Assembly: GCA_964625065.1 (NCBI GenBank)
Contig: CAZUZL010000002.1
Coordinates: 58,067-122,066, forward strand
From: an uncultured Candidatus Saccharibacteria bacterium
GTDB lineage: Bacteria > Patescibacteriota > Minisyncoccia > Phycocordibacterales > UBA9973
DNA: 64,000 bases
Reading direction: 5' to 3'
The position numbers and the translations under genes were made by a program. Under the pieces are notes generated by a model. That model was not told the DNA's origin, did no database searches, and saw only the letters and a list, made by a program, of their open reading frames with translations. Position 1 is the first letter of the stretch. Each line of letters begins with the position of its first letter. This document shows, piece after piece, positions 40,384 through 60,507 of the stretch.

Positions 40384-43314
40384 TTATAAATTTTGTTTAT
40401 TGAATTTGTTTATAAACTTAATAGTTTTGGCATTCATTGTACCGTCTGCTTTTAGTTTGTTAGCCTTTTGGTAGTTTATAAGAGCTTTTTTAGTAGCTTT
40501 ACCAAAGTATTTGGTTTCGTACCCTACAGACCCCCACCCTACAGTAGATACTATAAACCCATTTTTATTTAAGAACTTTTGCAATTCCAATACTTCTACA
40601 TTTCTACTGCCTACACGTGTATTTTTTACAAACACAAATGCAGGTAATGGTGCTGAAGTTGTAACAGGAACTTCATTTTGGTTTTTAGGTTGTTCTGTGG
40701 TAGTTATTAATTTGTTTGGAGGTAATTCTGTTAATATACCACCAGCGCTGTTTGAGCTTGTTGTTGGTGTAGTTTCTACTTCAGCAACGGGTAATGTGAC
40801 TATGTAATAGTTTTTAAATGCATTAGGCGACACTGCTTCTGAAACAAATGCAACCTTAGAACCGTCAGGTGACAGTGTTGGATAAAAAGTGCCACCTTCT
40901 GTTGCTTGGCCAGTAAAAAATGTAGGTAATCTGATTATACTGTTATCTAGCATATTTTTAACATACACATCATACGCACCATTTGAACCTAAACTTCCCG
41001 CGTTTGAAGCAAAAGATATGTATTTACCATCTGCAGATATACTTGAGCCACTTACAGAACTATCAGTCTGTGTTCCGTCTGCCGCTACAGAAACAATTGT
41101 TGTAGTGCCGAGTTGCATGTCGCGAACAAATATATCCGGGATATTGTTTAGATCACCATTTACTAAATCTGAAGCGCTAGATTCAAATGTAATATATCGC
41201 CCATCTGGTGACATAATTGGGTAAATAGATTCACCATTAGCAGACGCGGTACCGGCTGAATTTATAGATACTAGTGTAGTAGTTCCTAGAAGCGTGTCGC
41301 GGATAAAAACATCAGATTGACTGTTTGTATCTATATCAGGCACAACATCGTCTATTGGTGCGTCGAAAGCAACATAACGACCATCTTCAGATATTACAGG
41401 GTTATACGATGAAGCTAATATTTCAGTGCCGTCGTTTTTTAATGATACACGCGTAGTTGTGTTTTCTTGTAAATCACGTACAAAAACGTCATATAAACCA
41501 TTTGTGTCCCCTGCGACCAGGTTTGTGGCAGAACTTGTAAATGCTACATAACGTCCATTTGCAGACATGTCTGCAATATATGAATAGTCGTCAGATTCTA
41601 CACCAGCAGTAGACAGTGACACACGTGTGGTTGTACCTAGTTGCATGTCGCGAACAAATACATCTCCTTTATTGTTTGTGTCCCCTGCGACCAGGTTTGT
41701 GGCATCAGAAAGAAATGCTACATACCGCCCGTCGGCAGACATAGAAGGCATATAAGAAATACTGTTACCCTGTACACCTGCAGTAGATACAGAAATACGT
41801 GTAGCTGTGTTTAGTTGTGTGTCGCGAACAAATATGTCAGAAATACCGTTAGTGTCATTATTGACTAAGTTTCCAGAATATGAACTGAATGCAACATACC
41901 TACCGTCTGTAGACATGTTGTTTCTATATTGAGAAAAATCGTCTGGTGAGGAACCAAAAGCAATTGAGGTATAAACATTCGATATATGTGTCGTTGTACC
42001 AGTTTGTGTGTCGTGTATAAACATGTCGTCACTGTCTGGAATAACATCGTTATCAAACAAGTTAGAAGCAACTGAACCAAAAGTTATATAGCGTCCATTT
42101 GGTGATATAGACGGAGTATACGAATCTGAATTGGCTTCTGCGCCACCAGTTACTACAGAAACTCGTGTTGTAGTGTTTAGTTGTGTGTCACGGACAAAAA
42201 CATCTGTAATAACACTGGTGTCGTCTGCAACTAGGTTACTTGCTGTTGATTGAAATGCTATATAGCGCCCATCAGCAGATATAGATGCATATGTAGAATC
42301 AAGGTTACCTTCTACGCCAGCAGTAGAAACAGACACACGAGTTGTTGTGCTAGTTAATGTGTCGCGCATAAACACATCTGTTTTTGCGTTTGTGTCACCC
42401 ACAACTAAATTTGAAGCATCAGAATGAAATACTACATACCGGCCATCTGCAGATATTATTGCAAAATTAGACTGGTTATTAGATTCAGTACCATCAGTTG
42501 CAACTGATACACGTGTTGTAGTGTTTAGTTGTGTGTCGCGCATAAAAATATCTGTATACCCGTTTGTATCGTCAGCAACCAGACCTGTACCTGATGATTC
42601 GAAACTAACATAACGGCCATCAGCAGATATACTGGCACCAACTGCGCCTTCTATTTCTTCATCACCGGCGGTGTTAACTGAAACACGTGATGTAGTGTTT
42701 AGAACAGTGTCGCGAACAAAAACATCAGGGTTACCATTAGTGTCGCCCACAACTAAGTTCGATGCGATTGACTCAAAAGCCACATACCGGCCATCGTCTG
42801 AAATAGACGGTGTCCTTGAGTCACCATTGGCTTCTGTGCCGTCTGCTGCAACTGACACGCGTTTAGTTGTACCTAGTTGGGTGTCGCGTACAAATATGTC
42901 CAAGTTACCTAAAGTGTCGCCGTCGACAAGGTTTGTAGCATACGAATAAAATGCAATGTAACGCCCGTCTGGTGTATAAGCCAAATCTAAAGAATCAGCA
43001 TTACCCATTTCACCAGCACTGTTTACAGAAACTATTTCAGTAGCACCAGTTGCATGGGTATATTTATATATTTGGTAATTATATGGACTAAGCGACGACA
43101 CGCCGTAGAACAATGCGTCGCCGTTATCTAGAACGCCTTTACCACCATCTGAGATTGCTGTTGTGTGCCGTATAGGTACAGTTGCGTCACCTATATCTAT
43201 TTGAACTATATCAGATGTTGCTGCAAATGACTGTGTACCTAAAAAAGGTAATACGCAAACCAAGTATATACCCAGCACTGACATAGTTATGTGTTGTAGT
43301 TTTTTCATATACAA
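40384..43314 (-). CDS. Secreted PD40 (TolB-like) beta-propeller repeat protein with C-terminal peptidoglycan-binding domain.
   Basis: 976 aa with a signal peptide. About 16 repeats of ~44 aa (DGRYVAFxSxASNLVxGDTNGxxDVFVRDTQLNTTTRVSV). The C-terminal ~80 aa are PG_binding_1-like. Confidence 0.7.
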   Translation of the reverse strand: MYMKKLQHITMSVLGIYLVCVLPFLGTQSFAATSDIVQIDIGDATVPIRHTTAISDGGKGVLDNGDALFYGVSSLSPYNYQIYKYTHATGATEIVSVNSAGEMGNADSLDLAYTPDGRYIAFYSYATNLVDGDTLGNLDIFVRDTQLGTTKRVSVAADGTEANGDSRTPSISDDGRYVAFESIASNLVVGDTNGNPDVFVRDTVLNTTSRVSVNTAGDEEIEGAVGASISADGRYVSFESSGTGLVADDTNGYTDIFMRDTQLNTTTRVSVATDGTESNNQSNFAIISADGRYVVFHSDASNLVVGDTNAKTDVFMRDTLTSTTTRVSVSTAGVEGNLDSTYASISADGRYIAFQSTASNLVADDTSVITDVFVRDTQLNTTTRVSVVTGGAEANSDSYTPSISPNGRYITFGSVASNLFDNDVIPDSDDMFIHDTQTGTTTHISNVYTSIAFGSSPDDFSQYRNNMSTDGRYVAFSSYSGNLVNNDTNGISDIFVRDTQLNTATRISVSTAGVQGNSISYMPSMSADGRYVAFLSDATNLVAGDTNNKGDVFVRDMQLGTTTRVSLSTAGVESDDYSYIADMSANGRYVAFTSSATNLVAGDTNGLYDVFVRDLQENTTTRVSLKNDGTEILASSYNPVISEDGRYVAFDAPIDDVVPDIDTNSQSDVFIRDTLLGTTTLVSINSAGTASANGESIYPIMSPDGRYITFESSASDLVNGDLNNIPDIFVRDMQLGTTTIVSVAADGTQTDSSVSGSSISADGKYISFASNAGSLGSNGAYDVYVKNMLDNSIIRLPTFFTGQATEGGTFYPTLSPDGSKVAFVSEAVSPNAFKNYYIVTLPVAEVETTPTTSSNSAGGILTELPPNKLITTTEQPKNQNEVPVTTSAPLPAFVFVKNTRVGSRNVEVLELQKFLNKNGFIVSTVGWGSVGYETKYFGKATKKALINYQKANKLKADGTMNAKTIKFINKFNKQNL

Positions 43315-44186: not shown

Positions 44187-46505
44187 TTAGATTTCACAAA
44201 CTCCACCTACACATGCCAATTCCTTTTTCACTTCTGTTTCGTCTGTAACTTCGTATGTCATTATTTTTGAGAAGTCGATGTTTGCAACAGTGCCCTTTAG
44301 TTCATTATAACGTTGTTCGGTTATGGCTTCGTATGGGGCTAGTTGGTAAATGTGGTTTGAACGTGGTAGGAATGAAAGTCCGCCAACTATGTCCCAGTTT
44401 TTGTAAACCCAACTTGCTACTTCTATCCATTCGTCGTCGCCTACTGAAACTGTTACTGAAGGGTTATGTTCAGTGTAGTTTACTTTTACAACTTTCCAGT
44501 GTTCTAGTTGGTCGATGGCGTTTATGTCGTCTTTGAACACACCACCCTTTGGTGCCTTAACTGGGAATTCTAGAACGAAAGTATGCGCTGTGTCGTAAGT
44601 TTGTCCAACTTCTGGGAAGTGTGGCACACCTTGGTCTTTCAACATTTTAAACAATGCGTCGTTAGCTGATATACGAACACGGCGTATGTAGTACTGACTG
44701 TGGCGTGGGTGCATACCAGAAGACGAGTCTACTGTTTGAGAAAGGTTACCTGAAGGCTTAACACATGTTATACATGTAGATTCAGATACACCAAGGCGCT
44801 TAGCATATAGTTTGTTTATGCGTATTGTTTCAGCGCGTAGTTTTGCTAGCACTTTTGGTGCACGAGCAACCTTACTGTCCCATTGGCCAGTTATAGATAC
44901 ACCTAGCAAACGCTCCTTTTCACAGTTTTCTTTCCATTCTTTTGAAAGGTAGCCGAATTTTGTTAATGAAGACTGGTATGTACCTAGTATAGTTGCGATG
45001 CGGATTTTCTTCATCAATGTTGCCTCGGTGTCCTCTGCGCGGGCTACAACTTCAGATAGGTTGCAGAACTGTTTTGAACGAAGAATAATTTCGCCACATG
45101 GGTTTGTACCGATAGAACCAACAACATGGTTTGCTGCATCTATGTAGCCATCTTTTTTAAGTAGTTCTACACGGCGTTTTGGTAGTTGGTCTGGTAAACC
45201 ACCGCGGTTAAATATGCCACGTTCGCCTGAACCAGACTTCATCAACGCTACCCATTCGTCCATGAATTCTTCGGTACTTGGTTTGTTGTTGTAAACTGCC
45301 GAGTTATTAGCCAACATACGTTGTCCGTCTGTGTTCCAGAACTGACCTTTTTTAGCGTCACGCATTGCGTCGTCGTCTAGATCAGAAAGTGATATTAGCG
45401 CACTGCGACGTACACCACCTGAGACTACAACTTCGCCTATTTTACATATTATGTCGTGTGCGTCTATGTTAGTTAGACGGCGGCCTTGGCGGTGTAGAAC
45501 CTTGGCACGAGTAAAATCAAGCAGGTCTACCAGTGGTTGTGGGCCAGAAGACTTGCCCCCCATAGTAGCTAAACGCGCACCAGACGGACGTAGTTGTGAA
45601 AAGTTAAACTTGATGTCGTTACCGTCGAACCAAGTTTGCATACCTACAGCAAATGCGTCTGCCCAACCTTCTTTTGAATCTGCCACTGTATATGTAGGCA
45701 ACATTTTACCTGTTTGGTAGGCTATCTGTGGCAGTGCCTGAATGTTTTGACTTTCTATAGAAAAACCAACGCCAGTACCACACATAGATATGTATATTAT
45801 TTCAGCAAAATCCTGAATAGATTTTGGCGCAGTAAACGAACAGTTATATGCACATACATTTGTTGCACGTGCTGGTTTGCCAGCAAACTGCATTAGACGC
45901 ATAGAAGGCATGGCTTCTTGGTTTAGAATAGATTCACGTATTTCTTCGTATTCTTTTTTGTTTAATGCGTCACCTATGTTTTCACGCATAAAGTCCATGT
46001 AACGGTCGACTGTTTCTATCCAACATTCGCGGCGACCTTCTTCTTCGATCCAACGTGCATATGTACGGTAGTAAACAAGTTCAGCAAGCTTGTTTTTGAA
46101 ATATTTTGAAGATTCTTCAGCTTTTTTCTTAAAATCCTTGGTAACCACTACACCTTCTTCGCGAAGTTCACTACGGCGACTGCGGAACAATATGTACGAC
46201 TTGGCAGTTTCCAGAAAACCAGCACGCATAAGTTCAGCTTCTACTATGTCTTGGGCCATTTCAACAGAAGGTATAAATTTGCCTTTTTTGTTTTCTTTTT
46301 GCAAAGCAAGTAAACCCTTAAACACAGCATGAGCTATAGCAACTGCTTCGTCTTCGCCAGCGTTTTTTTCTTTTGTGTCTAAGAAAGCTTTGTATACTGC
46401 ATTAGTAATGCGGTGTACATCAAAAGCTATTACTTCGCCTAGGCGGTTACGAAACTGTTTTATTTTTGCTAGTTCTGCTTTCGAGAAACTTACTTTTTTG
46501 GTCAT
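44187..46505 (-). CDS. nrdJ: Adenosylcobalamin-dependent (class II) ribonucleoside-diphosphate/triphosphate reductase with N-terminal ATP-cone.
   Basis: 772 aa with an ATP-cone N-terminus and a class II signature NPCGEI (GTNPCGEIILRS). Confidence 0.8.
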   Translation of the reverse strand: MTKKVSFSKAELAKIKQFRNRLGEVIAFDVHRITNAVYKAFLDTKEKNAGEDEAVAIAHAVFKGLLALQKENKKGKFIPSVEMAQDIVEAELMRAGFLETAKSYILFRSRRSELREEGVVVTKDFKKKAEESSKYFKNKLAELVYYRTYARWIEEEGRRECWIETVDRYMDFMRENIGDALNKKEYEEIRESILNQEAMPSMRLMQFAGKPARATNVCAYNCSFTAPKSIQDFAEIIYISMCGTGVGFSIESQNIQALPQIAYQTGKMLPTYTVADSKEGWADAFAVGMQTWFDGNDIKFNFSQLRPSGARLATMGGKSSGPQPLVDLLDFTRAKVLHRQGRRLTNIDAHDIICKIGEVVVSGGVRRSALISLSDLDDDAMRDAKKGQFWNTDGQRMLANNSAVYNNKPSTEEFMDEWVALMKSGSGERGIFNRGGLPDQLPKRRVELLKKDGYIDAANHVVGSIGTNPCGEIILRSKQFCNLSEVVARAEDTEATLMKKIRIATILGTYQSSLTKFGYLSKEWKENCEKERLLGVSITGQWDSKVARAPKVLAKLRAETIRINKLYAKRLGVSESTCITCVKPSGNLSQTVDSSSGMHPRHSQYYIRRVRISANDALFKMLKDQGVPHFPEVGQTYDTAHTFVLEFPVKAPKGGVFKDDINAIDQLEHWKVVKVNYTEHNPSVTVSVGDDEWIEVASWVYKNWDIVGGLSFLPRSNHIYQLAPYEAITEQRYNELKGTVANIDFSKIMTYEVTDETEVKKELACVGGVCEI

Positions 46506-47264: not shown

Positions 47265-47804
47265 TTATTCCGGAAAATTAATTGGAATTCTAAGATAATC
47301 AAACAAATCTTTTGCTTCATCCATTGTCATTACTTTTGACCATGATAAAGAAAGGTGCTGTGAATCGCTATTGTTTATAGCACAATCAATAATGGCCTGT
47401 TCAATGTCTTTCCATGTTGGTTTTTCCAAAGCCCATTTTGATGCCAAAGGTTCACTTTTTAACAAATGATTCTTAAGAAAAAATTTCTTAGCAGCTTTTT
47501 TAACAACCTCAAAGGACTTCAACTTGTCTTCCTTTTTTGTAAAATTATGCGTTGCATCAAGTATTACGTACACACGTTTTTTAGAGTGGTAATAGATGTG
47601 AATCTGATAAGCGTCATCATCACTACCTTTTTCACCACTCCACCTTTCACCATTATACTGACCAGGGAATATCGAACACATAAGATTTATTTCCCCGCCT
47701 GATTCTTCTTCTGTAAACTGTCCGGGAGTTCTAGAAAAATCATTTTCAAACATTTTACAAGGATTAGTATCCTTTGTTTCATCGGAACTGTAACTATTAT
47801 TCAT
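47265..47804 (-). CDS. Hypothetical protein.
   Basis: 179-aa ORF. Upstream promoter TTGACA-17-TATAAA on the minus strand at about 47830-47860. Confidence 0.4.
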   Translation of the reverse strand: MNNSYSSDETKDTNPCKMFENDFSRTPGQFTEEESGGEINLMCSIFPGQYNGERWSGEKGSDDDAYQIHIYYHSKKRVYVILDATHNFTKKEDKLKSFEVVKKAAKKFFLKNHLLKSEPLASKWALEKPTWKDIEQAIIDCAINNSDSQHLSLSWSKVMTMDEAKDLFDYLRIPINFPE

Positions 47805-47936: not shown

Positions 47937-49556
47937 TTACTTCTTAGTTGCAAAGTAATGTCTAGATAGTACGATCAGTAGTAACAACATGAACGTTAGT
48001 AGCAACCAACCGAACAATGATGTTGGGAAAAACCCAGTACCGAAACCAAACAATGCAGCAGCACCCTGGCCGTTACCGTAACCAAAAGGGTCGGCAGCTT
48101 TGTCTAGTATGGTACTGTTACCTTTTACTGAACCAGTTTGAACTTTGGTAGAACCACTAGTAGATGCAGTGTTCAAAGTTTTAACATAGTTAGTGTCGCC
48201 ACGAGACACAGTAGACTGGTCCATAGCAACTGCACGGTAGTAGTATGTAGTGCCAGGTTTAAGACCGGTTATGTTTGCAGAAAAAACATACGAATTGTTT
48301 ATAGCCACATACTGTTGTGCTGTAGTTTGGCCTAATGCTGTAGTTGGACCGTATTCGAACCAAACGCGTGCGTTAGTTGCAGTACCATAAACTATACCAC
48401 TGACAACAATACTTTTTGTTGTAGCAGATTTAGCTAATATAGTAGTTGCACTGATGTGGTTTGTGTTTGAACCACCACCACCGTTACCGCCACCGCCGTT
48501 TCCACCACCACCATTGCCACCGCCGCCGTTACCGCCGTTGTACGCTAATGTGTCAAAGAATAAAATGTTTCCGGCATATACTGTACCTACACTGTTTGTT
48601 GCAACAGCACGGTAATAGTATCTAGTAGATGGAAACAAACTAGAAGCAAAATGTATACAGTTACCACCAGTACCTAGTACTTGACTTGTTGTACGGTATG
48701 GCATGGCACTGTTTTCGCCATATTCAAAATACACGTTTACAGTAGAGTCGCTACCAGTTGTATATGCACAAGAAATATTTGCACTATTAAAAGTAATATT
48801 AGAAGCTGAGCTATTATATACAGTTGGCAACACGTTTGAACCGCCACCGCCTCCTCCACCGCCACCGCCACCGCCATTTGTAGGTGATGTGGTAAATTGA
48901 CCTATAGTTACAGCAGTAGTTGTACCAACGGTGTTTGTTGCAACAGCACGGTAGTAGTATTTAGTACTTGGGTTTAAACCAGTAACGTATGAGGTACATG
49001 TTGCACCTGTTGTAAGTGTTTGTGGATTTGTTTTAGTTGCTAGTGTTGTAACAGATGTGCCGTATTCAAAATACACAGAGGCAGTGTTGTCGCTACCTGT
49101 GTTTATAGCACATGTAAGGTTAACACTATTTGCAGATGGGTTTACTGCACCGGTAGTCATAACTGATGGTTTTGCACTAACTGTTATGTCTGTTACCAAA
49201 GTTGCGGTAGAACCAGTTGGAAACAACCCATGGCCTTCGCCTAATATACGATAGTAATAACGTTTACCTGAAGTTAGTCCAGTTATAGTTTTACTGTATG
49301 ACAAATTTACGCCAGTTACGGCTTCGTGTGGTGTGTCTGTAGAACCAATAAAAGCACCGTTGTCTGCATATTCAAACCAAACGTTCATAACAGAACCGTC
49401 TGTGTTGTATGTACCGTTCAGAGTTGCAGTAGTTGCAGTTGCCGTATACGAACCGGTTTGCATATATGGCGCAGCCATAGCCTGACTGGCACCGAACATA
49501 GCAAAAGCCGCACAAAATGCGAAAACAAAGCTAAATTTTTGGATTGTATTTTTCAT
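47937..49556 (-). CDS. Cell-surface protein with four FN3-like repeats, poly-Gly linkers and C-terminal TM anchor.
   Basis: 539 aa with a signal peptide. Four ~90-aa repeats end in YYYRAVATN. Linkers are GGGGGGGGGGGG and (NGGGG)4. C-terminal hydrophobic anchor plus KK. Confidence 0.65.
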   Translation of the reverse strand: MKNTIQKFSFVFAFCAAFAMFGASQAMAAPYMQTGSYTATATTATLNGTYNTDGSVMNVWFEYADNGAFIGSTDTPHEAVTGVNLSYSKTITGLTSGKRYYYRILGEGHGLFPTGSTATLVTDITVSAKPSVMTTGAVNPSANSVNLTCAINTGSDNTASVYFEYGTSVTTLATKTNPQTLTTGATCTSYVTGLNPSTKYYYRAVATNTVGTTTAVTIGQFTTSPTNGGGGGGGGGGGGSNVLPTVYNSSASNITFNSANISCAYTTGSDSTVNVYFEYGENSAMPYRTTSQVLGTGGNCIHFASSLFPSTRYYYRAVATNSVGTVYAGNILFFDTLAYNGGNGGGGNGGGGNGGGGNGGGGSNTNHISATTILAKSATTKSIVVSGIVYGTATNARVWFEYGPTTALGQTTAQQYVAINNSYVFSANITGLKPGTTYYYRAVAMDQSTVSRGDTNYVKTLNTASTSGSTKVQTGSVKGNSTILDKAADPFGYGNGQGAAALFGFGTGFFPTSLFGWLLLTFMLLLLIVLSRHYFATKK

Positions 49557-49612
49557 ATGTATATTATATCGTATTTATAAGGATATTTTAGCATTATAGC
49601 AAATTTATATGT

Positions 49613-49653
49613 TTTGTCAAGTTTAGGCTTGACTTTTAAGGCTAAATCTGCTA
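49613..49653. promoter_or_regulatory. Back-to-back divergent sigma70 promoters for the 47937-49556 and 49714-51249 genes.
   Basis: The palindrome gtcaagtttaggcttgac supplies -35 TTGACA (minus) and TTGACT (plus). The -10 boxes are tgcTATAAT (minus) and tgcTATACT (plus). Confidence 0.55.
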
Positions 49654-49713
49654 TACTACAGATAGAAAATTCAATTAAATTTCACAAGTTTTTTTCAAAA
49701 TAATAAATCAAAT

Positions 49714-51249
49714 ATGCGTAAACTCATCATTCTATTCACTGCCCTATTGGGCCTTGTTGGAGCTGCACAAGCTCAAATCACTACTTCTAATGTTACCCTA
49801 TTCTCTGCACAAGGTGTCGAAAAAGGGATAATCACAACTACTAACATACGAGGTATTAAAGATACTTTGTATAGTGTAAACATCTGTATTTCCGCTACTA
49901 GTAGTGGATCACTGAGTTCAATAAAAACGTACACAATACGTGGCAACGATTCGGTTACAACAGTTGTTGATACAATAACTGATGCCAACTCGAACGGAGG
50001 TATACCATCTGCATGGTGGTATGTAAAAGTAAAATTGTATTCTGCGGGAATCGTAGATACAGTTTCTAATGTGGTAGGGCCTGTTAATGTAACAGATTCT
50101 ATTAAAAAACCTTCTGTTACATTGGTCGGAAAGCCATATGTTGACAGCCTTGGCAATGTTTCTTCGTACGCGAAAGTTACAACAAACGGAGATGCTGTGA
50201 TTTACTGGTATGCTGCGTACGATAGTACAAAAGTATATCGTGAACAGAACAGATACTACGACACTATCAAAGTTGGTTCGGGCACAGTAAATGGACTTGT
50301 AAATTTGGTTTTTGGAAACATTCCACTTAATAAAACAATATTTTGTGGAGTCAAAATAAAAAACAAAGCAGGTTCTGACAGTGTAACTGCAACAAAAAGT
50401 GATGTATACATGAACAAGCAAAAACCGAGTTGCGATATCGATTCGGTGTACAGATATGTGGATCATTTTAAAGTTAGATTACGAGTTGTAGGTTTTAAAT
50501 TAAGCACAACAAACGGATTAAATTTTAGAAAACTTGGAACGTCAGTATGGTTATCCGGCGACAGTGCCGTAATAACCGGTGACAGCATTCAATATCCGAT
50601 TATAAATACGCCAAACATTTTAGAACCAGAATCTGGTTATGAAATTCAGGCGTGGAGTAGAAATGCACTGGGTACAAGTTACTCAGTACCCCAAACTTGG
50701 TATACTACCAAGACATCTAGCCCAGGTTTCTTTTCAATAAAAGTTACTAAGGCTGTAGCAGGTATTAGAAAAGACTTAGATGTAAACTTTACCGTAACTA
50801 CTGCAAACGGAACAACAGCAAGTGTTACGCCGAAATTTTCAAAAAGTGCTGATTTTTATACAAGCTCAATGTCAGCTTCGTATGATATAAATTCATCTAC
50901 TGAAAACAGAAGTGAAAAAGTTGTGATACCAAATGCAGTGGACACAGGAAACTATTTCTTTACAATGCAAGGTATGGATAGTAAAGGTGTGCAGATATTA
51001 ATATCTGATATATACACCATCAAAGTTCGTAACTGGACCATGGGTATAGACCCGAACTACCAATTTATTGATTTTCAAACAGAACCAGGTACTATTTACC
51101 AAGTGTTTGATATCAATGGGAAAATAGTAAAAGAAGGGATAATGGTTGAAGCACATGAACAAATTAGTTTAGCTGAACTGCCAGCAGGTATCTATGTGTA
51201 TTCATTACACACAGGAAACTTGTTTACAACAGGTAAAATAATAAAATAA
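49714..51249 (+). CDS. Secreted protein with a T9SS-type C-terminal sorting domain (Por_Secre_tail-like).
   Basis: 511 aa with a signal peptide. The C-terminus VFDINGKIVKEGIMVEAHEQISLAELPAGIYVYSLHTGNLFTTGKIIK resembles type A T9SS CTDs. Confidence 0.55.
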   Translation: MRKLIILFTALLGLVGAAQAQITTSNVTLFSAQGVEKGIITTTNIRGIKDTLYSVNICISATSSGSLSSIKTYTIRGNDSVTTVVDTITDANSNGGIPSAWWYVKVKLYSAGIVDTVSNVVGPVNVTDSIKKPSVTLVGKPYVDSLGNVSSYAKVTTNGDAVIYWYAAYDSTKVYREQNRYYDTIKVGSGTVNGLVNLVFGNIPLNKTIFCGVKIKNKAGSDSVTATKSDVYMNKQKPSCDIDSVYRYVDHFKVRLRVVGFKLSTTNGLNFRKLGTSVWLSGDSAVITGDSIQYPIINTPNILEPESGYEIQAWSRNALGTSYSVPQTWYTTKTSSPGFFSIKVTKAVAGIRKDLDVNFTVTTANGTTASVTPKFSKSADFYTSSMSASYDINSSTENRSEKVVIPNAVDTGNYFFTMQGMDSKGVQILISDIYTIKVRNWTMGIDPNYQFIDFQTEPGTIYQVFDINGKIVKEGIMVEAHEQISLAELPAGIYVYSLHTGNLFTTGKIIK

Positions 51250-51340
51250 AAAACTCTGCGGAGTTTAAGCCCCGACACAATTGTGTTGGGGTTTTTTAAT
51301 TTCTAATAATAGGTAGTGTGTTTTTAAAAGGCAAAATACG

Positions 51341-51838
51341 ATGTATAATAAAACAAATATCTTTTTCAATATGAAACACACACTGATTATACTGTTTTGT
51401 TTTTTTACATTGCTATGTAATAGCCAAACCAATACCGATGTAGATCGGGAAATGGTTAAAACACAGGTGGTTAAAGTTGTTAAACTCCTAGAAGAAAAGT
51501 ACCCTAAAACACTGACCGACCCAGATCCAATGAACACGGTTAGTGCATGGATAGAGGTAACTGATTCTGGTGCCCAGGGTGTACGCACAACCGGTTTGTA
51601 TTATTATAAAAATGGTACAAAAGATTTGTGGTTAAGTTTAAAATACTACGACGCCGGTGCAAACGGATGGGGTGAAGTTTGTGTACCCGGCCAGTATGTA
51701 GACTGCGACGGTATGCCACCAGGTGTACCCCAGCAATTTACAAACTGGACACTAGCAGACAGACAGAAATATTTGAATGAATATTTCTGTGAACTAGAGT
51801 ACTGGCAGGCAATACTAACATACACACCAGCCAACTAA
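51341..51838 (+). CDS. Small secreted Cys-containing protein.
   Basis: 165-aa ORF. The likely start is the internal Met at 51371 (MKHTLIILFCFFTLLC), which begins a signal peptide. Confidence 0.45.
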   Translation: MYNKTNIFFNMKHTLIILFCFFTLLCNSQTNTDVDREMVKTQVVKVVKLLEEKYPKTLTDPDPMNTVSAWIEVTDSGAQGVRTTGLYYYKNGTKDLWLSLKYYDAGANGWGEVCVPGQYVDCDGMPPGVPQQFTNWTLADRQKYLNEYFCELEYWQAILTYTPAN

Positions 51839-51859: not shown

Positions 51860-52210
51860 ATGAACGGGTTTTTTGATTGCCAACACAATATAACTATGCT
51901 ATGGTTAGAAAAAATACAAAACATCATGGCTCTATTTGAAAACACGAAACCCGTCATAATGTGGTTGCCTGTATGGTACACCTGCCGTTGTGGTGGCGAT
52001 ATACTACAAAAAGTTGAAAAACGTAAAAAGATTTGGGCTTATGGTGGTAGATACGCTGGTGCTTCAAACCCTTACTACATACCTGAATATATTAATATGC
52101 GAGAGTATAAATGTTCAGAATGCGAAAAGAAATTTAAAACTACGATCTTTCTTAGAAAGAAAACAAAACCTACTTTGGTTTTAGAAAATGGTGAATTTAA
52201 ATTCACCTAG
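51860..52210 (+). CDS. Hypothetical zinc-ribbon protein.
   Basis: 116 aa with a CxC...CSEC Cys pattern. A terminator hairpin gccggaaatttatttccggc follows at 52222-52245. Confidence 0.4.
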   Translation: MNGFFDCQHNITMLWLEKIQNIMALFENTKPVIMWLPVWYTCRCGGDILQKVEKRKKIWAYGGRYAGASNPYYIPEYINMREYKCSECEKKFKTTIFLRKKTKPTLVLENGEFKFT

Positions 52211-52509
52211 TGAATAGTACTAAGCCGGAAATTTATTTCCGGCTTTTTTATTTTATACACTATAACGGAATTTAACGGTCGTTAATTTCCGTTACCATTA
52301 CACACAAATAACAAAAACCACCTTTCGGTGGTTTTTGTAGAGGATACAAACTTTCTTTTGTTTCGTTCTGACCGGGACTTTCCCCGGCGTCAACATGGTT
52401 AAGGTCACAACATGCTTGGACCATTATGCACTCGATCGAGCTGCACAATATCGACACCATAAGTGTATATCTGGTTGAATAGATATAAACACGGTTTCAA
52501 ATTGAATTA

Positions 52510-54083
<1,574 letters not shown>

Positions 54084-54394
54084 ATATAAGAGGTAAATTT
54101 TAGTTTATCTCTTCGTAAAAAGAGACAAGATAAAGAATATTATTGTATATGTTGTTTGCACAAAGATGAATATATGTAAGGACCGTTTGACCGGCCTTTT
54201 ACCAGATATTCTACTTTGTTATTGTTTTGTCAAAGTACTTTTTACCTTTAGGGCACAAGGCATTTTAGCTCCCCCTGCCCTCAAAATAAAACCCCTATTC
54301 AAGAGGTAGAGAGTATTCTATACGAAGTAAAATATAAGTCAAGCGGTTAACCTAGACTTATAAATATGGTGTTAAACGCGCTTTCAATTTAAAA

Positions 54395-54425
54395 AGCCAC
54401 TCGGAAATTCAGAGTGGCTTTTTAA
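54395..54425. terminator. Terminator downstream of secF.
   Basis: aaaaagccactctgaatttccgagtggcttttt. Confidence 0.6.
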
Positions 54426-54435
54426 ATTGAATTAT

Positions 54436-55362
54436 CTAAGAAATCGACTGATCTAAGAGCTTCTTATCCTGTCGCTTCTTCAAACTAACAAGCATTGGTG
54501 ATGCAAAGAAAATTGAAGAGTAAGTTCCAGCGATGACTCCGAAGATGAGAGCGAGTGCGAAATATTTTGTTGAATCTCCTCCAATGAAGAAAATACATAA
54601 GAGTGAGATTAGCGTTGTACACGAAGTGTTTATGGATCGTGACGCAGTCTGCATCAAACTGTCTCCAACAATGGAGTCGAAGTTTTCTTTTCGATCTTTG
54701 TCAGAATACCTCAAGAGATTTTCGCGTATTCGATCAAATACGATAATAGTGTCGTTAATCGAATACCCGAGAATTACAAGAATCGCGACGACAAACAGTG
54801 AATCGACTTCCACTCCGTAGAAATGACCAAGGAATGAAAAGACTCCGACAGGAATCAGTATGTCGTGAACGAGTGTTGCGATAGCTACAAACCCATATTT
54901 CCACGAAGAAACTGGGCGGGACACGTGCCTAAAAGCGTACGCAATGAACAATGTGATAAGTAATACCACAGCGATGAAGGAGAAGATAGCCTTTTTCTGA
55001 AGCTCATTTCCGAGTGTTGGTCCAATCGTATTAAATTTCTTCTCAGAAACTTTGCCGACTGTTGCAAGAGCAGTCATAAGCGCATTCTTTTGAACTTCTT
55101 CAATTGTTTTTGATCTCAAAGTAAAACCCATATCCCCTGTCTCGCGAATTGAATAATCACCAAGATCGATATTCTGGGAAAGAACTGTAGTTTCAACTAG
55201 CTGCTTTTCAGGACGATTACCCTCGAATGCAAATTCAAGAACTGAGCCACCAGTGAAATCAACTCCAAATTTAACCCCCCAAGTTGCCAAGAAAATAATC
55301 GATAGGCCGAGCAAGACACCAGACAGCGCATAAAATATTTTTCGTTTATTGATGATCCACAT
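54436..55362 (-). CDS. secF: Protein translocase subunit SecF.
   Basis: 308-aa membrane protein adjacent to secD with the SecF TM pattern. Confidence 0.8.
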   Translation of the reverse strand: MWIINKRKIFYALSGVLLGLSIIFLATWGVKFGVDFTGGSVLEFAFEGNRPEKQLVETTVLSQNIDLGDYSIRETGDMGFTLRSKTIEEVQKNALMTALATVGKVSEKKFNTIGPTLGNELQKKAIFSFIAVVLLITLFIAYAFRHVSRPVSSWKYGFVAIATLVHDILIPVGVFSFLGHFYGVEVDSLFVVAILVILGYSINDTIIVFDRIRENLLRYSDKDRKENFDSIVGDSLMQTASRSINTSCTTLISLLCIFFIGGDSTKYFALALIFGVIAGTYSSIFFASPMLVSLKKRQDKKLLDQSIS

Positions 55363-55365
55363 ATA

Positions 55366-56712
55366 TTATTTCTTAGCGAATAAAACTTGTAATTTTGAGC
55401 CGACTTTTTTGGTGCTGATTGCAAGCAACAACCATTTCGAAATCACTATCGCGGTAAACATACTCACGATGACACCAAGGGCAAACACGAGTGAGAAACC
55501 TTTGACAAGTGATGAGCCGGACATCCAGAACAAAATCACCGCGGAAATAAGGCTTGATAGGTTACCATCACGGATCGAAGACCACGCGCGTCGAGTACTT
55601 TCGCTGACAGCTTCGAAGACTGAAAGACCCAGGCGCAATTCTTCTTTTAATCGAGCAAAAATCAAAATATTCGCATCAACCGCCATACCGAGTGACAAGA
55701 CAAATCCTGCGAGACCAGCGGATGTCAAAATCACCGGAATGAACTTAAAGAGTGCGAGCATAATTACCACGTACATCATGAGAGAAATCGAAGCAATCAC
55801 ACCCGGTAATCGATACAACAAAATCATAAAAATAAAGATGAATGCAAGAGACCACGTAAGTGCCTTGACCCCTTTGTCCAATGTATTCTGACCAAGTGAT
55901 GCTCCGATTGACTCAGTTTCAAGTAATTTGATTGGTAAAGGTAACGCACCAAAATTCAAATTTTGAACAAGTTTTTTTGCTTCTGCCGGAGAAAAGTCCC
56001 CAGTAATTTGGGCCGTACCAGCAGTAATTTCATCACGGATAACGGGAGAAGAAATTGGTGTTCCGTCGAGGAAAATCGCCATAATACGACCAACATTATC
56101 CTTGGTTAATTTCGAGAGAAGTTCCTTGCCCTCTGTATTAAATTCAATCGAAACAATTGGTTGGCGGCTATAGTTATCAAAAACCAAGCTTGCGCGCTTC
56201 ATCTGTGCCCCAGTAAGTCCAGTTGGGATATACATTTTCGATTGCACTTCAGCAATCTGTTCAGGAGTTGATGTTGCAGTAACTGAATCGAGTACAGCAG
56301 TATCATTTGTCAGGATTTTAAATTCCAAAAGTGGCGTCTGACCAATCATGCGAATCGCTTCATTCACATCAGTCACACCTGGCAATTCCACAGTTAGACG
56401 ATTTTCTGACGCATCATCTCCGAGAAATCCAGATTTTTCAACTTGAATAATTGGCTCTGAAACACCCAAAATATTCACGCGCTTTTCGATAGTCTGACGC
56501 AAAGCATCCATAGCACCGTCGATATCTTTTTCCTCTACAGCCCTCGTATCCGCACCATATGTTAAATGTGTTCCGCCATCCAAGTCCAAACCGAGCTTAA
56601 ATTTAAAAGCTGAATTTGGATTAACTTCACTTGAATAAACAAACCACGCTATTAAAACACCGCCAATTAATAATGCCAAAGCTACTAATCTTGTTTTCAA
56701 CATATTTCGCAA
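55366..56712 (-). CDS. secD: Protein translocase subunit SecD.
   Basis: 448 aa with a large periplasmic domain and C-terminal TM bundle. Confidence 0.8.
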   Translation of the reverse strand: MRNMLKTRLVALALLIGGVLIAWFVYSSEVNPNSAFKFKLGLDLDGGTHLTYGADTRAVEEKDIDGAMDALRQTIEKRVNILGVSEPIIQVEKSGFLGDDASENRLTVELPGVTDVNEAIRMIGQTPLLEFKILTNDTAVLDSVTATSTPEQIAEVQSKMYIPTGLTGAQMKRASLVFDNYSRQPIVSIEFNTEGKELLSKLTKDNVGRIMAIFLDGTPISSPVIRDEITAGTAQITGDFSPAEAKKLVQNLNFGALPLPIKLLETESIGASLGQNTLDKGVKALTWSLAFIFIFMILLYRLPGVIASISLMMYVVIMLALFKFIPVILTSAGLAGFVLSLGMAVDANILIFARLKEELRLGLSVFEAVSESTRRAWSSIRDGNLSSLISAVILFWMSGSSLVKGFSLVFALGVIVSMFTAIVISKWLLLAISTKKVGSKLQVLFAKK

Positions 56713-56768
56713 TTATACGAGCGTTTTGAGGTAAAATCCAGATGACAATATCAATATTTTGTGTTGTT

Positions 56769-58082
56769 TTAACGACCACTTCGTAGAATAATTGTCCGGG
56801 CGGTCTTTAAGAAAATCTCAAAATCCAAGAAAAGTGACCGATTTTTAACATAAAATAAATCATACGCGAGCTTATTTTTTGTCTCTATAACATCTAATTC
56901 GTGATGTGGGTGATTTTCATGATAAATTTGTGCCCAACCAGAAAGTCCCGGTTTGATCAAATGACGAATATTGTAATATGGAATCTGTGCATTATACGAT
57001 GCAACCATGTCGACTTTTTCAGGACGAGGTCCAATGAGTGACAAATCCCCCCGTATCACATTCCAAATTTGCGGCAATTCGTCGATGCGGGTTTTGCGCA
57101 GAAAATTTCCTACCGATGTTACCTTATCATCTGCCATAGATCGAAACTTATAAATTTTAATCTTTTTGTTATCTTTTCCAATTCTTTCTTGAGTAAAAAA
57201 GATCGATCCACCGTCCTGCATTTTGATAGCGAGACACACAAAAGGATAGAAAATGAGTGAGACAAGCCCAATCGCAAGTCCAATCATTACATCAACCACG
57301 CGTTTAATCCCATCGTACATCATATGAGTATCAGTAGTAATATGTCTCAAAAACCATCCATGACCAACAATGGAAATCGGGATCTTTGCAAATACCTGTT
57401 CATACACTGTATGCATATCAACAAAACGAACTTTTGAAAACATTAAATTGTAGAACCGATTGAGAAGTGGTTGGATTTTGACATTTTCTGAATCAATCAC
57501 CACATTTTTGATATCTTCGGAGTAAATGAAAGCGACGATTTCGTCTTGTAAATTGAGCGAATCAACTTTATCCAGATTAATGTAGTTTGTGAAATAAAAA
57601 CCGTATTTACCACGATTCACCTCATTCTTTAATTCAATCATCTCTTCCCCATGTGCGATAAGAAGAGATTTTTCGCGCTCACCGCGATAAAAAAGCGGTC
57701 GAACAAAAATTCTCCAGCCTGCAAGTAAACCAAGCGAAACAATCAGGTAAATAAACAACGTAATTTTAGGTGTAATCGAAAAAGCCGGAATGAAATAGAA
57801 AAAGACAATCGCAAGAACAATATTCACAATTTGCGTAGTAACGAGGAGTTTTGGTAGATGTCTTTTGGCAACTACATTAAAACGGTCATAGAGGCCTGCG
57901 ACATAGAAAATCGCTATCCAAGCCAAAAATAGTATAGAAAATGGTTGAATGTGACCAATAAGCCCACCCAAGTCTGGTAACTCGATATGACGAACCAGCA
58001 AGGTAATCCAAATAGAAACATAAAGCACAAATAGGTCTCCACACAACAGAATCAGGGGTTCTTTTTTGTTGACTATATTCAT
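56769..58082 (-). CDS. Polyprenyl-phosphate sugar phosphotransferase (WbaP/bacterial sugar transferase family).
   Basis: C-terminal sugar-transferase domain with DELPQIWNVIRGDLSLIGPRPE. The ORF-track start 58139 overlaps the divergent GT4 gene, so I chose the internal Met at 58082 (MNIVNKK). Confidence 0.7.
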   Translation of the reverse strand: MNIVNKKEPLILLCGDLFVLYVSIWITLLVRHIELPDLGGLIGHIQPFSILFLAWIAIFYVAGLYDRFNVVAKRHLPKLLVTTQIVNIVLAIVFFYFIPAFSITPKITLFIYLIVSLGLLAGWRIFVRPLFYRGEREKSLLIAHGEEMIELKNEVNRGKYGFYFTNYINLDKVDSLNLQDEIVAFIYSEDIKNVVIDSENVKIQPLLNRFYNLMFSKVRFVDMHTVYEQVFAKIPISIVGHGWFLRHITTDTHMMYDGIKRVVDVMIGLAIGLVSLIFYPFVCLAIKMQDGGSIFFTQERIGKDNKKIKIYKFRSMADDKVTSVGNFLRKTRIDELPQIWNVIRGDLSLIGPRPEKVDMVASYNAQIPYYNIRHLIKPGLSGWAQIYHENHPHHELDVIETKNKLAYDLFYVKNRSLFLDFEIFLKTARTIILRSGR

Positions 58083-58116
58083 ATTGCTATAATATAGATA
58101 TACTATACTAAATTCA

Positions 58117-59148
58117 ATGAAAACTCTATACGTAATCACAAAATCAAATTGGGGTGGTGCTCAGAAATATGTGTACGACCAAGCTGCGATGCGAGCCAGA
58201 TATCCTGATGCAAAAGTAGCGGTGCTTGCTGGAGGTAACGGTGAATTATGTGATCGTCTCGAAAAAATAGGTGTACCAGTTTATCACATACCAAACTTGG
58301 AAAGGGATATTAACATCTTCAAGGAATTTTCTGTTTTCGCTACACTACTCAAAACATATCGCAGCACGAAACCAAACATTATCCATTTAAATAGTTCCAA
58401 AATTGGAGCAATCGGGGCTTTAGCTGGTCGACTTCATAACCTTTTTTCAAAACAAAAAGCTAAAATAATCTTTACTGCGCACGGATGGGCTTTCAATGAA
58501 GATCGTAATCCAATTAGCAAATTTATAATTACAGTAATTTCATATTTCACTATCTTGATGTGTCACGAAGTTATTGTGCTATCTAATTTTGAACGCGATC
58601 AAGTATCTCGATGGCGGGGGTGCTCAAGAAAGATTCGTGTGGAAAAACTGCGAATCGCACCGATTGATTTCTCCATTACATCCGATGCACGAAATATTCT
58701 CACCAGCAAGCTCCCCGCTCTGCGCGAACATATCAATAAAAGATGGGTTGGAACAATAGCCGAACTTCACAAAAACAAAGGTCTCGGGTTCGGCATCGAG
58801 GCAATCAGAAATATTCGTGATCAAAATTTCGTCTGGGTGATTATTGGAGAGGGTGAAGCGCGCACAATACTCCAACGTGAAATTCTGAAGTACAATCTAC
58901 AAAATAAAATATTTCTAGTTGGATACGTATCGGATGCATCAAAATTACTCGGGGCTTTTGACATGTTTCTCCTCCCTTCTATCAAAGAGGGATTGCCATA
59001 TGTTTTATTAGAAGCAGAGCAAGCAAAATTACCGATAATCGCAACTGAGGTCGGCGGAATTCCGGAATATTTTAACAAAACTCCAAATATAATCGTGCCC
59101 CCAAGAGATCCCCAATCTCTATCCAATGCTATTTTAAAAATGATATAA
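58117..59148 (+). CDS. Group 1 (GT4) glycosyltransferase.
   Basis: 343 aa with the EX7E-type region EGLPYVLLEAEQAKLPIIATEVGGIPE. Confidence 0.7.
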   Translation: MKTLYVITKSNWGGAQKYVYDQAAMRARYPDAKVAVLAGGNGELCDRLEKIGVPVYHIPNLERDINIFKEFSVFATLLKTYRSTKPNIIHLNSSKIGAIGALAGRLHNLFSKQKAKIIFTAHGWAFNEDRNPISKFIITVISYFTILMCHEVIVLSNFERDQVSRWRGCSRKIRVEKLRIAPIDFSITSDARNILTSKLPALREHINKRWVGTIAELHKNKGLGFGIEAIRNIRDQNFVWVIIGEGEARTILQREILKYNLQNKIFLVGYVSDASKLLGAFDMFLLPSIKEGLPYVLLEAEQAKLPIIATEVGGIPEYFNKTPNIIVPPRDPQSLSNAILKMI

Positions 59149-59156
59149 TATTTTTC

Positions 59157-59684
59157 ATGTCTAATACCAACAAAAAATATGGTTTCACCCTCATTGAACT
59201 ACTCGTAGTTGTCTCCATTATCGCATTACTTTCAAGTGTCATTTTGGGCGCACTCCAGGACGCACGCGTAAAAGCACGGGATCGCGCGCTCTTTTCGGGA
59301 GTTTTAGAATTACAAAAAGCAGTCGAGTTATATAAGTTAAAGTATGGGGTGTACCCGCAAAGATCCGATGGACAAGCAAACGTAAATATTACTCGAGATT
59401 CGGATGGGGCATATTCATCAAATAATGATGTCCAGCGCGACTACATACTACCTCAAATTAGAGAATTTATTCCAGATATGCCTCAACCAACTGCTGTTGG
59501 TGGTTTTGTTTCATTTTATCATAGTCCTAGCTTCACTTGTACTGACAACCTAACAGCGCCATACATGATCCTATTCACACCTGAAAATATGAGTTCATTT
59601 TCAAACCTACCGAGTGGTCGCAGAACTACTACCACAGGAGCGATCTCTTTTGCTAGTTATGCTAAGTGTCTCTCTGGCAAATAA
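59157..59684 (+). CDS. Type IV pilin-like protein (prepilin N-terminal methylation domain).
   Basis: MSNTNKKYG|FTLIELLVVVSIIALL, a class III signal with G-1/F+1/E+5. TATAAT lies 7 nt before the ATG. Confidence 0.7.
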   Translation: MSNTNKKYGFTLIELLVVVSIIALLSSVILGALQDARVKARDRALFSGVLELQKAVELYKLKYGVYPQRSDGQANVNITRDSDGAYSSNNDVQRDYILPQIREFIPDMPQPTAVGGFVSFYHSPSFTCTDNLTAPYMILFTPENMSSFSNLPSGRRTTTTGAISFASYAKCLSGK

Positions 59685-59729
59685 AAGATGGTTGGCCTCA
59701 TCCGCTAATCATATGATATAATTTAAAAC

Positions 59730-59984
59730 ATGAGCGATATACAATTCGAGGATTCAAATTATCGGGTGCAAAGTTACTCAACAAATTCCAACACTGGCCT
59801 CACTAGCTGGTTGGTTAGAAAAGGTTTGGTCAAAAACGAAGCTGCGGCAGAAATATTCCTTCTTATTATGGCAATTATATTCTTCATTCTTGCAGCCATG
59901 ATGTTTTTCAATGACAACAAAAGTATCATACCGATCGGAGATATCGACACAGAATTATTAGATGCAGAAGCTAACAATATATAA
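59730..59984 (+). CDS. Small membrane protein between the two pilin genes.
   Basis: 84 aa with one TM helix. TATAAT lies 7 nt before the ATG. Confidence 0.45.
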   Translation: MSDIQFEDSNYRVQSYSTNSNTGLTSWLVRKGLVKNEAAAEIFLLIMAIIFFILAAMMFFNDNKSIIPIGDIDTELLDAEANNI

Positions 59985-59988
59985 TTAC

Positions 59989-60489
59989 ATGAGAGGCAAC
60001 ACATCCAAACAAGGTTTTACTTTAATCGAACTTCTAGTTGTAGTTTCTATCATCTCACTCTTATCCATCGTCATTCTCGGTGCTCTGAATGATGCACGAG
60101 CAAAGGCACGGGATCGAGCACTATTTTCTGGAGTTTTGGAGTTACAAAAAGCGGTAGAGTCATATAAGTTGAAGTATGGGGTGTATCCAGCAGGAGGTAC
60201 TTACGCTTCCTACATAGCGAGAAATTATCTTGGTACATATTCTGGTGCTCCTGGTTACGCAACAGTCCTGACAAACATACAGGAATTTATCCCAAACATA
60301 CCCCAACCAACCACGGGATCTGTAGGATTTTACACTCAATCCAATATAAAATGTGTCGGTCAAGAAAATGCCCCTTATGCAATTTCTTTTACACCAGAAA
60401 ATTTATCTACTTTTGCACATCTACCCTTCTACAACAACTCAAATAACGCAGCACCGTCAACTACAGTAAAATGTGTAACGAGCGAATAA
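59989..60489 (+). CDS. Type IV pilin-like protein, paralogue of the 59157 gene.
   Basis: MRGNTSKQG|FTLIELLVVVSIISLL. The start moved to internal Met 59989 because TATAAT sits immediately upstream. Shares LFSGVLELQKAVE(L/S)YKLKYGVYP with the first pilin. Confidence 0.7.
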   Translation: MRGNTSKQGFTLIELLVVVSIISLLSIVILGALNDARAKARDRALFSGVLELQKAVESYKLKYGVYPAGGTYASYIARNYLGTYSGAPGYATVLTNIQEFIPNIPQPTTGSVGFYTQSNIKCVGQENAPYAISFTPENLSTFAHLPFYNNSNNAAPSTTVKCVTSE

Positions 60490-60507
60490 GTCTGATATCT
60501 CTACCGA

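Follow-up and report, generated by a model that had tools for sequence, protein, structure and literature searches.

Why does a protein of a bacterium that looks like a member of the candidate phyla radiation (CPR) end in what resembles a type IX secretion system (T9SS) sorting domain? This question is raised by an open reading frame (ORF), here called the target, on a 64,000-nucleotide stretch of contig CAZUZL010000002.1 (assembly GCA_964625065.1), hereafter the window. T9SS has been described as confined to Bacteroidota and the Fibrobacteres-Chlorobi-Bacteroidetes (FCB) group (PMC10202324, PMC11205867), and the few characterised CPR bacteria are monoderm (PMC8871954). In this study, we found that the tail of the target is, by sequence and predicted fold, homologous to T9SS C-terminal domains (CTDs) of type A, and that it recurs in one strain-variable, syntenic protein family of Candidatus Nomurabacteria. 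We consider it reasonably probable that this tail works without T9SS.

The target ends in a homologue of the type A T9SS sorting domain

The target coding sequence (49714..51249, + strand) encodes 511 aa, in which a Sec signal peptide is followed by four beta-sandwich domains of Ig/FN3-like type and, at the C-terminus, by a T9SS type A-like CTD. The first-pass annotation of this DNA had placed an ORF at exactly these coordinates, quoted its tail, and likened the last ~50 aa to a type A CTD. The family models agree with this reading. TIGR04183, the NCBIfam model of the T9SS type A sorting domain, matched aa 455-511 with 32.3 bits (E 7e-8), above its curated cutoff of 23. The lack of a significant TIGR04183 match, which the first-pass annotation had named as a refutation, was thus not observed. 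The same cutoff was passed by 9/11 family members tested (the target and 8/10 relatives), and in the relatives P0007 and L011 the match starts at model position 1. The gathering score of the corresponding Pfam model, PF18962, was passed by the more distant members P0016, P0024 and P0108 with full-length matches of 35-39 bits.

Using published definitions of the CTD motifs (PMC10202324, PMC10994853), we found DPN as a degenerate motif A in the target, DINGKIV as motif B, LPAGIYVY as motif D, and TGKIIK, with Lys508, as motif E. The degenerate motif A is a trait of the window's subclade; the canonical form, (V/I)(Y/F)PNP, is present in P0007, P0016, P0024, L011 and P0108. The motif E position is occupied by K or R in 14/15 family members. 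Most conserved CTD residues specify the fold, and the motif E lysine is instead functionally required for secretion (PMC10994853, PMC10202324). In all ~15 family members the CTD is located at the extreme C-terminus and a signal peptide at the N-terminus. This holds for P0016 and P0024 (~725 aa), which have extra body domains and still carry the CTD at the C-terminal end.

The CTD (aa 441-511; 51034..51246, + strand) was modelled separately with AlphaFold as a sandwich of 7 strands (pLDDT 81.1, pTM 0.69). Its best solved neighbours in Foldseek are T9SS CTDs and the Bacteroides domain DUF3244, with template modelling (TM) scores of 0.72-0.82. The T9SS CTDs among them (TM 0.72-0.79, root mean square deviation (rmsd) 2.2-3.0 A) belong to mirolase, FspA, NucA, RemA, RemZ, RgpB and PorZ. 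The CTD of FspA, solved in the SprA-PorV complex, superposes with TM 0.78/0.79, 27% identity and rmsd 2.3 A, and the C-terminal TGKIIK of FspA is identical to that of the target. A search of PDB sequences with a profile of the family tails recovered, at E-values of 5e-9 to 1e-5, the NucA and FspA CTDs together with the last ~60 residues of lipase 7pzj, a stretch not confirmed as a CTD. Taken together, profile and model comparisons confirm the tail as a true homologue of the type A T9SS CTD.

The full-length AlphaFold model (pLDDT 71.7) consists of a signal-peptide helix, four beta-sandwich domains and the terminal 7-strand unit, giving five sandwich units. The helix covers residues 2-18 and corresponds to the signal peptide, which is conserved in the family alignment. 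The signal peptide itself (MRKLIILFTALLGLVGAAQA, followed by Q; 49714..49773, + strand) reads as a signal peptidase I type with an AQA-Q site. Foldseek matches of the body are strings of FN3/Ig/macroglobulin domains, and no enzyme domain was found among them. Besides the CTD, no anchor was identified in the target: it carries no transmembrane helix, lipobox, LPXTG motif or cell-wall-binding domain.

The source organism is a Nomurabacteria bacterium

To place the organism, the neighbouring class II ribonucleotide reductase (RNR; 44187-46505, - strand) was compared with one genome per GTDB species (185,579 species genomes). This RNR-anchored scan returned 76 loci, nearly all from Patescibacteria, and the source records are from freshwater and groundwater. 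The best match is the Ca. Nomurabacteria metagenome-assembled genome (MAG) Kiruna_bin-09228 (99%). The next ones have 96%, 92% and 76% identity, the last being Nomurabacteria RIFCSPHIGHO2_02_FULL_38_15, followed by Paceibacterota, Parcubacteria, Campbellbacteria and others. The RNR protein is 96-99% identical to those of the related loci L002, L007 and L008, even where DNA is ~86% and 16S ~85% identical.

The proteins encoded in the window include housekeeping and peptidoglycan synthesis functions, SecA/SecD/SecF and type IV pilins. Judged by the RNR scan and these genes, the host is truly a Candidatus Nomurabacteria (Patescibacteria/CPR) bacterium, as the CPR-like impression recorded in the first-pass annotation would have it. 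That annotation also raised the possibility that the genome stands nearer to the FCB group than the 16S gene would indicate. No support was found for this idea, because the RNR relatives are Patescibacteria and the window has an unlinked 16S gene, a 23S insertion, type IV pilins and no outer-membrane genes.

The 16S gene (52500..54087, - strand; Rfam RF00177, 1340 bits) flanks the target locus and is separated by ~8.6 kb of protein-coding genes from the 5S gene (62743-62849, - strand) and the 3' part of the 23S gene (62981-64000, - strand), both found with Rfam, as was an RNase P RNA. The 16S gene is 1588 nt long for a model of 1533 positions. The 23S part has 1020 nt for 629 model positions, and its insertion of ~390 nt may be an intron.

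Tetranucleotide composition and codon usage switch sharply at the 16S gene (~52000-54400; right part 54436-62389). Measured against the left-hand centroid, the tetranucleotide correlation falls from 0.91-0.97 within the left 52 kb to about 0.70 beyond it; the codon adaptation index likewise drops from 0.70-0.78 to 0.51-0.61, the lower values belonging to the right part with secF, secD, glycosyltransferases, pilins and ftsW. The target is located inside the compositionally uniform left 52 kb. The low 16S identity to the related locus L003 is no outlier, as all 16S pairs in the Nomurabacteria set are 75-85% identical, and L003 independently shows the order target, 16S, secF, so that this adjacency is probably real. 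These two findings weaken, and do not eliminate, the suspicion of a chimeric join at the 16S gene; a foreign segment is another possible cause of the switch.

The window contains one CTD protein and no T9SS genes

We found no T9SS, Bam, Lpt or outer membrane protein (OMP) gene among the 41 scanned ORFs of the window, which are all but about ten small ones. Specifically, SprA/Sov, PorV, PorK/L/M/N (GldK-N), PorU/Q/Z and PorT all lacked a match among these ORFs, which agrees with the earlier statement that the window holds no T9SS machinery genes.

To look for other cargo, a broadened CTD hidden Markov model (HMM) was built from 15 family tails; it detected FCB-type controls on contigs L084 and L085 with E-values of 7e-15, 2e-12 and 1e-7. 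With this model, no CTD outside the target family was found in about 1.2 Mb from 76 Patescibacteria species, a search of limited power at about 10-20 kb sampled per genome. The window and the sampled Patescibacteria DNA thus hold one CTD family rather than many cargo proteins per genome. A word-index search with the CTD alone returned only short PF18962 proteins in FCB-like contexts (SprB, Fib_succ_major), and no further CPR cargo. In the literature searched, we found no report of T9SS or its CTD in CPR, Patescibacteria or Parcubacteria.

The target and a divergent partner gene form a syntenic module

A word-index search yielded seven full-length relatives of the target of about 510 aa with 28-87% identity. 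Scanning of fetched loci added L008, L011, L014 and L015, and an exhaustive profile search added P0016, P0024, P0099 and P0108, so that the family has ~15 members from independent assemblies. A scan of viral contigs gave no relatives. In every family-carrying assembly with the flank assembled, the target gene is adjacent and divergent to a gene for an FN3-repeat protein, its partner. About 10 independent assemblies, whose RNR is 70-99% identical, share a gene order of RNR, DUF192, partner and target, after which 16S usually comes. DUF192 and RNR are near the target in most assemblies, and 16S adjoins it in L003, L006, L011 and L015.

This arrangement bears on the first-pass proposal of horizontal acquisition. 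Recent horizontal gene transfer (HGT) was rejected, as was contamination, because the module and its synteny with CPR housekeeping genes are conserved in independent assemblies. The part of the proposal that survives is an ancient FCB-to-CPR transfer at the base of the clade, which is still a plausible origin, and an ancient FCB donor is the likely source of the tail.

The partner gene (47937..49556, - strand) encodes 539 aa with a signal peptide, FN3/PhoD_N-like repeats with poly-Gly linkers (Pfam) and a C-terminal anchor, which consists of GFFPTSLFGWLLL, a transmembrane helix and a basic tail. The anchor consensus, AAALFGxGxGFFP(T/Q)(S/T)xxxGWLLL, was found in all 13 partner orthologs (in L002, L005-L011, L086 and L087, among others) and nowhere else among 2221 ORFs. 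It is matched by no model of NCBIfam or Pfam, and appears to be either a sortase-/exosortase-like anchor motif not described so far or one specific to this family. A role as a general signal for many cargo proteins was rejected, since only partner orthologs among the 2221 ORFs carry it.

The intergenic region between the two genes is 157 bp long and contains two promoter-like sites placed back-to-back. The site of the target, TTGACT-17-TATACT with an extended -10 TG (49629..49657, + strand), scored 10/12 in the consensus scan and is located ~55 nt upstream of the ATG. That of the partner, TTGACA-16-TATAAT (49593..49620, - strand), scored 12/12. No Shine-Dalgarno sequence was read before the target ATG. 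Directly 3' of the target stop codon, the terminator scan identified an intrinsic terminator-like hairpin (51267..51304, + strand) with a 12-bp stem, 6 GC pairs and a T-run. From these signals the target looks monocistronic.

Shine-Dalgarno sequences are nearly absent throughout the window, and in many genes no more than ~5-10 nt separate the end of a TATAAT box from the start codon, for example murG (4907), scpA (8518), prfA (19846), the PD40 gene (43314), DUF192 (47181) and the partner (49556). This pattern suggests that leaderless mRNAs are widespread in the source organism and that the target, with a predicted leader of ~55 nt, is an exception.

Target alleles are hypervariable and modular

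We compared the locus with that of the closest genome, L008. DNA identity is 95.5% across RNR and DUF192. For the stretch made up of partner, intergenic region and target signal peptide it is 94.2%, and the match stops in the signal peptide at 49771. The following body cassette (domains 1-4; 49772..50957, + strand) has no detectable DNA match to L008 by blastn. The CTD is 67% identical at the DNA level, and the region downstream of it 88%. When proteins are compared, identity between the target and its L008 allele is 35% in the body and 43% in the CTD, and that between the partners is 97%. Against L002 and L007, RNR has 96% protein but 86% nucleotide identity, so that the robust rate contrast with the target is the one to the L008 flanks (94-95% at the nucleotide level).

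The identities of body and CTD are discordant among alleles. L007 is 70% identical to the target in the body and 34% in the CTD, L002 is 42% and 67% identical, respectively, and P0006 combines a CTD like that of L007 with a body like that of L005. This discordance indicates modular recombination. For the two closest alleles, those of the window and L088, dN/dS is 0.14 overall, 0.07-0.16 in the body and 0.35 in the CTD, where dS is lower. The target alleles are thus functional, under purifying selection, old and exchanged between strains by recombination. Such a pattern is typical of antigens or adhesins exposed at the surface, which would face hosts or phages.

A small ORF of 165 aa downstream of the target (51341..51838, + strand) encodes a putative secreted protein with a signal peptide and several Cys. 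Its translation is conserved in L088, where the target allele is of the window's type; it has no DNA match in L008 and no Pfam or NCBIfam family. Its presence with the same allele type and its absence from L008 indicate that it possibly belongs to the variable cassette.

Two other variable genes were observed near the locus. The first (40384-43314, - strand) also codes for a variable envelope protein, which has 976 aa, is internally repetitive, and combines PD40 beta-propeller repeats with PG_binding_1 at its C-terminus. It is missing at the syntenic position in L009 and L010, and is 64-81% identical to L008 at the nucleotide level between flanks of ~95%. The other (47265-47804, - strand) is a strain-variable ORF of 179 aa without a family; relatives have a His_Phos_1 gene there on the other strand.

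A T9SS-independent role of the tail is favoured

The explanation that we favour, and hold to be reasonably probable, is that the target is a Sec-exported, strain-variable surface protein whose tail works without T9SS, probably as a retention or docking module. The target and its membrane-anchored FN3 partner would form a resident, vertically inherited two-gene module driven by back-to-back promoters. The target would be an all-beta, beads-on-a-string protein exported by Sec, and its mature-region alleles would be old, highly divergent and swapped between strains by recombination. Since the described CPR cells are monoderm, and since the 41 scanned window ORFs gave neither T9SS nor outer-membrane genes, Sec export alone would place the protein outside, and a translocation signal would not be needed. 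As the target has no other recognisable anchor, the CTD is the only candidate for retention or docking. It would keep or dock the protein on the cell surface, with the envelope or the co-expressed anchored partner as the attachment point. For this explanation, we infer that T9SS and an outer membrane are absent genome-wide, that the protein is located at the surface, and that its CTD serves retention or docking. The first-pass idea that the CTD fold serves a different sorting pathway is left standing as a suggestion by this evidence.

Several observations weigh against this explanation or the homology on which it builds. The PF18962 match of the target (aa 462-510, 25.7 bits, E 1.5e-5) is slightly under the gathering score of 27. 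The structures are predictions from a 7-sequence alignment, and the Foldseek E-values for the CTD are weak (1e-3 to 3e-2), which is explained by the small size of the domain. The D..G+.V ... G.Y.v motif is also common to the prealbumin-like repeats of SpaA, Cna-B and CarboxypepD_reg. The absence of T9SS and outer-membrane genes applies to the 64-kb window, not to the whole genome. Mean pairwise identity across the family is 0.32 for the CTD and 0.28-0.33 for the body domains, so that conservation does not single out the CTD. Furthermore, the contrast between partner (97%) and CTD (43%) in the comparison of the window with L008 speaks against a specific lock between the two, and tight co-evolution of the partner with the CTD was rejected for this reason.

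The resemblance of the tail to a T9SS CTD might be convergent or generic, the tail being a prealbumin-like/Cna-B-type or other Ig-like domain that shares D-x-x-G-K-x-V ... G-x-Y-x-V. The PF18962 score of the target would fit this, as would an exhaustive search with the full-length family profile, in which positions ~450-495 matched many SpaA/SdrD_B/CarboxypepD_reg repeat proteins, including giant proteins at 10-22 internal stretches. We rejected these internal 'CTD repeats' as homology, because Pfam shows SpaA/SdrD_B/CarboxypepD_reg repeats there with summed weak scores. The tail profile also matched Cna-B domains of collagen adhesins in the PDB (E 1e-5 to 1e-4), but only at profile positions 21-61, whereas its matches to T9SS CTDs extend through the last strand to the C-terminus. 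No SpaA, Cna_B (PF17802/PF05738-type) or CarboxypepD_reg match from Pfam was found on the target even at E <= 1, and Cna-B is not among the top structural neighbours, which are T9SS CTDs and DUF3244. Distant members carry motifs A, B, D and E, including YPNP, and are matched by the models from position 1. The short pattern quoted in the first-pass annotation is not T9SS-specific, since SpaA, Cna-B and CarboxypepD_reg share it. The CTD assignment follows from the curated HMM scores, the last-strand coverage, the lack of SpaA/Cna-B matches in Pfam and the structural neighbours, and leaves generic resemblance a small chance. Granting homology, the target could be ordinary T9SS cargo, exported through SprA and PorV, if the contig were FCB-derived or contaminated, or if T9SS and an outer membrane had gone unnoticed in this Nomurabacteria clade. 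Such a role agrees with the textbook character of the type A CTD, whose motif E lysine is required in secretion but not by the fold, and with an AQAQ-type signal peptide like that of Bacteroidota cargo; moreover, 64 kb of the genome were inspected, and the compositional switch at 16S casts some doubt on contig integrity to the right of the locus. However, the target lies in the uniform left 52 kb and is linked to CPR housekeeping genes (RNR at 99% to a Nomurabacteria MAG, SecA, DUF192, 16S) in about 10 assemblies. The 41 scanned ORFs gave no T9SS, Bam, Lpt or OMP gene, and about 1.2 Mb of Patescibacteria DNA gave no second CTD cargo where T9SS organisms carry tens. With T9SS confined to Bacteroidota/FCB (PMC10202324, PMC11205867) and described CPR cells monoderm (PMC8871954), ordinary cargo is very improbable.

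If an ancestor acquired an FCB cargo gene, the CTD could also have stayed on as a functionless relic or structural cap, that is, a stable terminal Ig-like domain without a role in sorting, anchoring or recognition. Several points would suit a relic: what the conserved motifs of a CTD chiefly determine is its fold (PMC10994853), conservation of the CTD does not exceed that of the body domains, these domains are similar beta-sandwiches in a row, and the DNA examined gave one cargo family and no machinery. Against this stand the C-terminal position of the tail in every member, across RNR identities of 70-99% and bodies of 4 or more domains, and its dN/dS of 0.35, which is below 1. K or R is kept at motif E in 14/15 members although it is no fold determinant, the CTD is exchanged as a separate module, and the target is without another anchor. 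We regard the relic as unlikely, though less so than the other rivals. Flavobacteriia are abundant in freshwater and groundwater habitats. The source records of the related loci come from the same kinds of habitat, and an epibiont might present a type A CTD on a variable Ig-domain stalk to the PorV/SprA or attachment complex of a Bacteroidota host, for adhesion or hijacking. Retention of motifs D and E and of the Lys despite no apparent T9SS of its own is consistent with mimicry of this kind, and so is the strain variability of the exposed body, as expected of an interaction protein. T9SS, however, binds the CTD from the periplasmic side, inside the SprA pore (PMC10994853), so that an approach from outside is topologically awkward. 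The CTD occupies the C-terminal end of the protein, which may or may not be the cell-distal one. Host-directed mimicry is hardly probable on this balance. As a milder version, it is possible that monoderm Patescibacteria use the CTD as a recognition tag in a surface-anchoring pathway of their own, independent of T9SS and so far undescribed. A T9SS-independent retention or docking module remains our preferred explanation for the tail.

Comparison with known systems

Like the type A CTDs of Bacteroidota (FspA, NucA and RemA/RemZ of F. johnsoniae, RgpB of P. gingivalis), the tail of the target is predicted to form an Ig-like sandwich of ~70 aa and 7 strands, and it concludes a protein that starts with a Sec signal peptide. 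It shares motifs B, D and E with them, and the TGKIIK of FspA; motif A is shared by distant family members. Unlike T9SS cargo, the target comes from a Patescibacterium for which neither T9SS nor outer-membrane genes were seen in the window, and its tail is confined to one cargo family where T9SS organisms have tens. The window's subclade has the degenerate DPN for motif A, and cleavage by PorU and attachment to anionic lipopolysaccharide (A-LPS) cannot apply as described.

A precedent comes from Poribacteria, which are diderm. In that phylum, orphan TIGR04183 sorting domains were reported on repeat-rich surface or secreted proteins, with no Por/T9SS structural genes found (PMC3909097). Many different proteins carry the tail there; here it is one syntenic, hypervariable family in a reduced-genome phylum described as monoderm. 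A precedent for orphan CTDs therefore exists, and the target is a further case, not the first of its kind. The S-layer proteins TfsA and TfsB of T. forsythia, which are T9SS cargo, form a large beta-rich surface pair, in which the CTD brings the coat protein to the cell surface (PMC4175972, PMC8869499). Both Tfs proteins have a CTD and depend on PorK/PorT/Sov, whereas the module described here has one CTD protein and a partner anchored by a transmembrane helix. We detected no homology of the target body to the TfsA/TfsB bodies.

Two other groups resemble the tail in part. DUF3244 (PF11589; Bacteroides BT_1867 and BT_3571) gave the best structural matches of the tail model (TMq 0.81-0.82), but these are small stand-alone proteins rather than C-terminal tails, with 15% sequence identity. 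The Cna-B/SpaA domains of Gram-positive adhesins and pilins have in common with the target the D-x-x-G-K-x-V ... G-x-Y motif, a monoderm surface and a beads-on-a-string architecture. The similarity is confined to the central motif, with no Pfam match, and those proteins are anchored by LPXTG and sortase, which the target lacks.

Other features of the window

An S41 C-terminal processing peptidase, Prc/CtpA-like, is encoded at 12643-13857 (- strand) and matches TIGR00225 at 318 bits. It is a conceivable candidate for a trimmer of the C-terminal tails of exported proteins. Two paralogous-looking ORFs of ~225 aa (11413-12099 and 31971-32645, both - strand) have weak matches to the Y1 / REP-associated tyrosine transposase (IS200-like).

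Significance

The T9SS CTD is treated as diagnostic of type IX secretion in Bacteroidota/FCB, and is found here in a lineage expected to have neither the machine nor the membrane. A CTD that can live outside T9SS makes the automatic annotation as 'T9SS cargo' unsafe for such genomes. Very little is known about the hosts and the surface biology of Nomurabacteria, in which this two-gene surface module, hypervariable and with strong predicted promoters, may help to determine interactions with hosts or phages. If mimicry were true, a secretion signal of the host would have been turned into a device for adhesion or hijacking. The system offers a tractable question, namely what a CTD recognises when SprA and PorV are absent.

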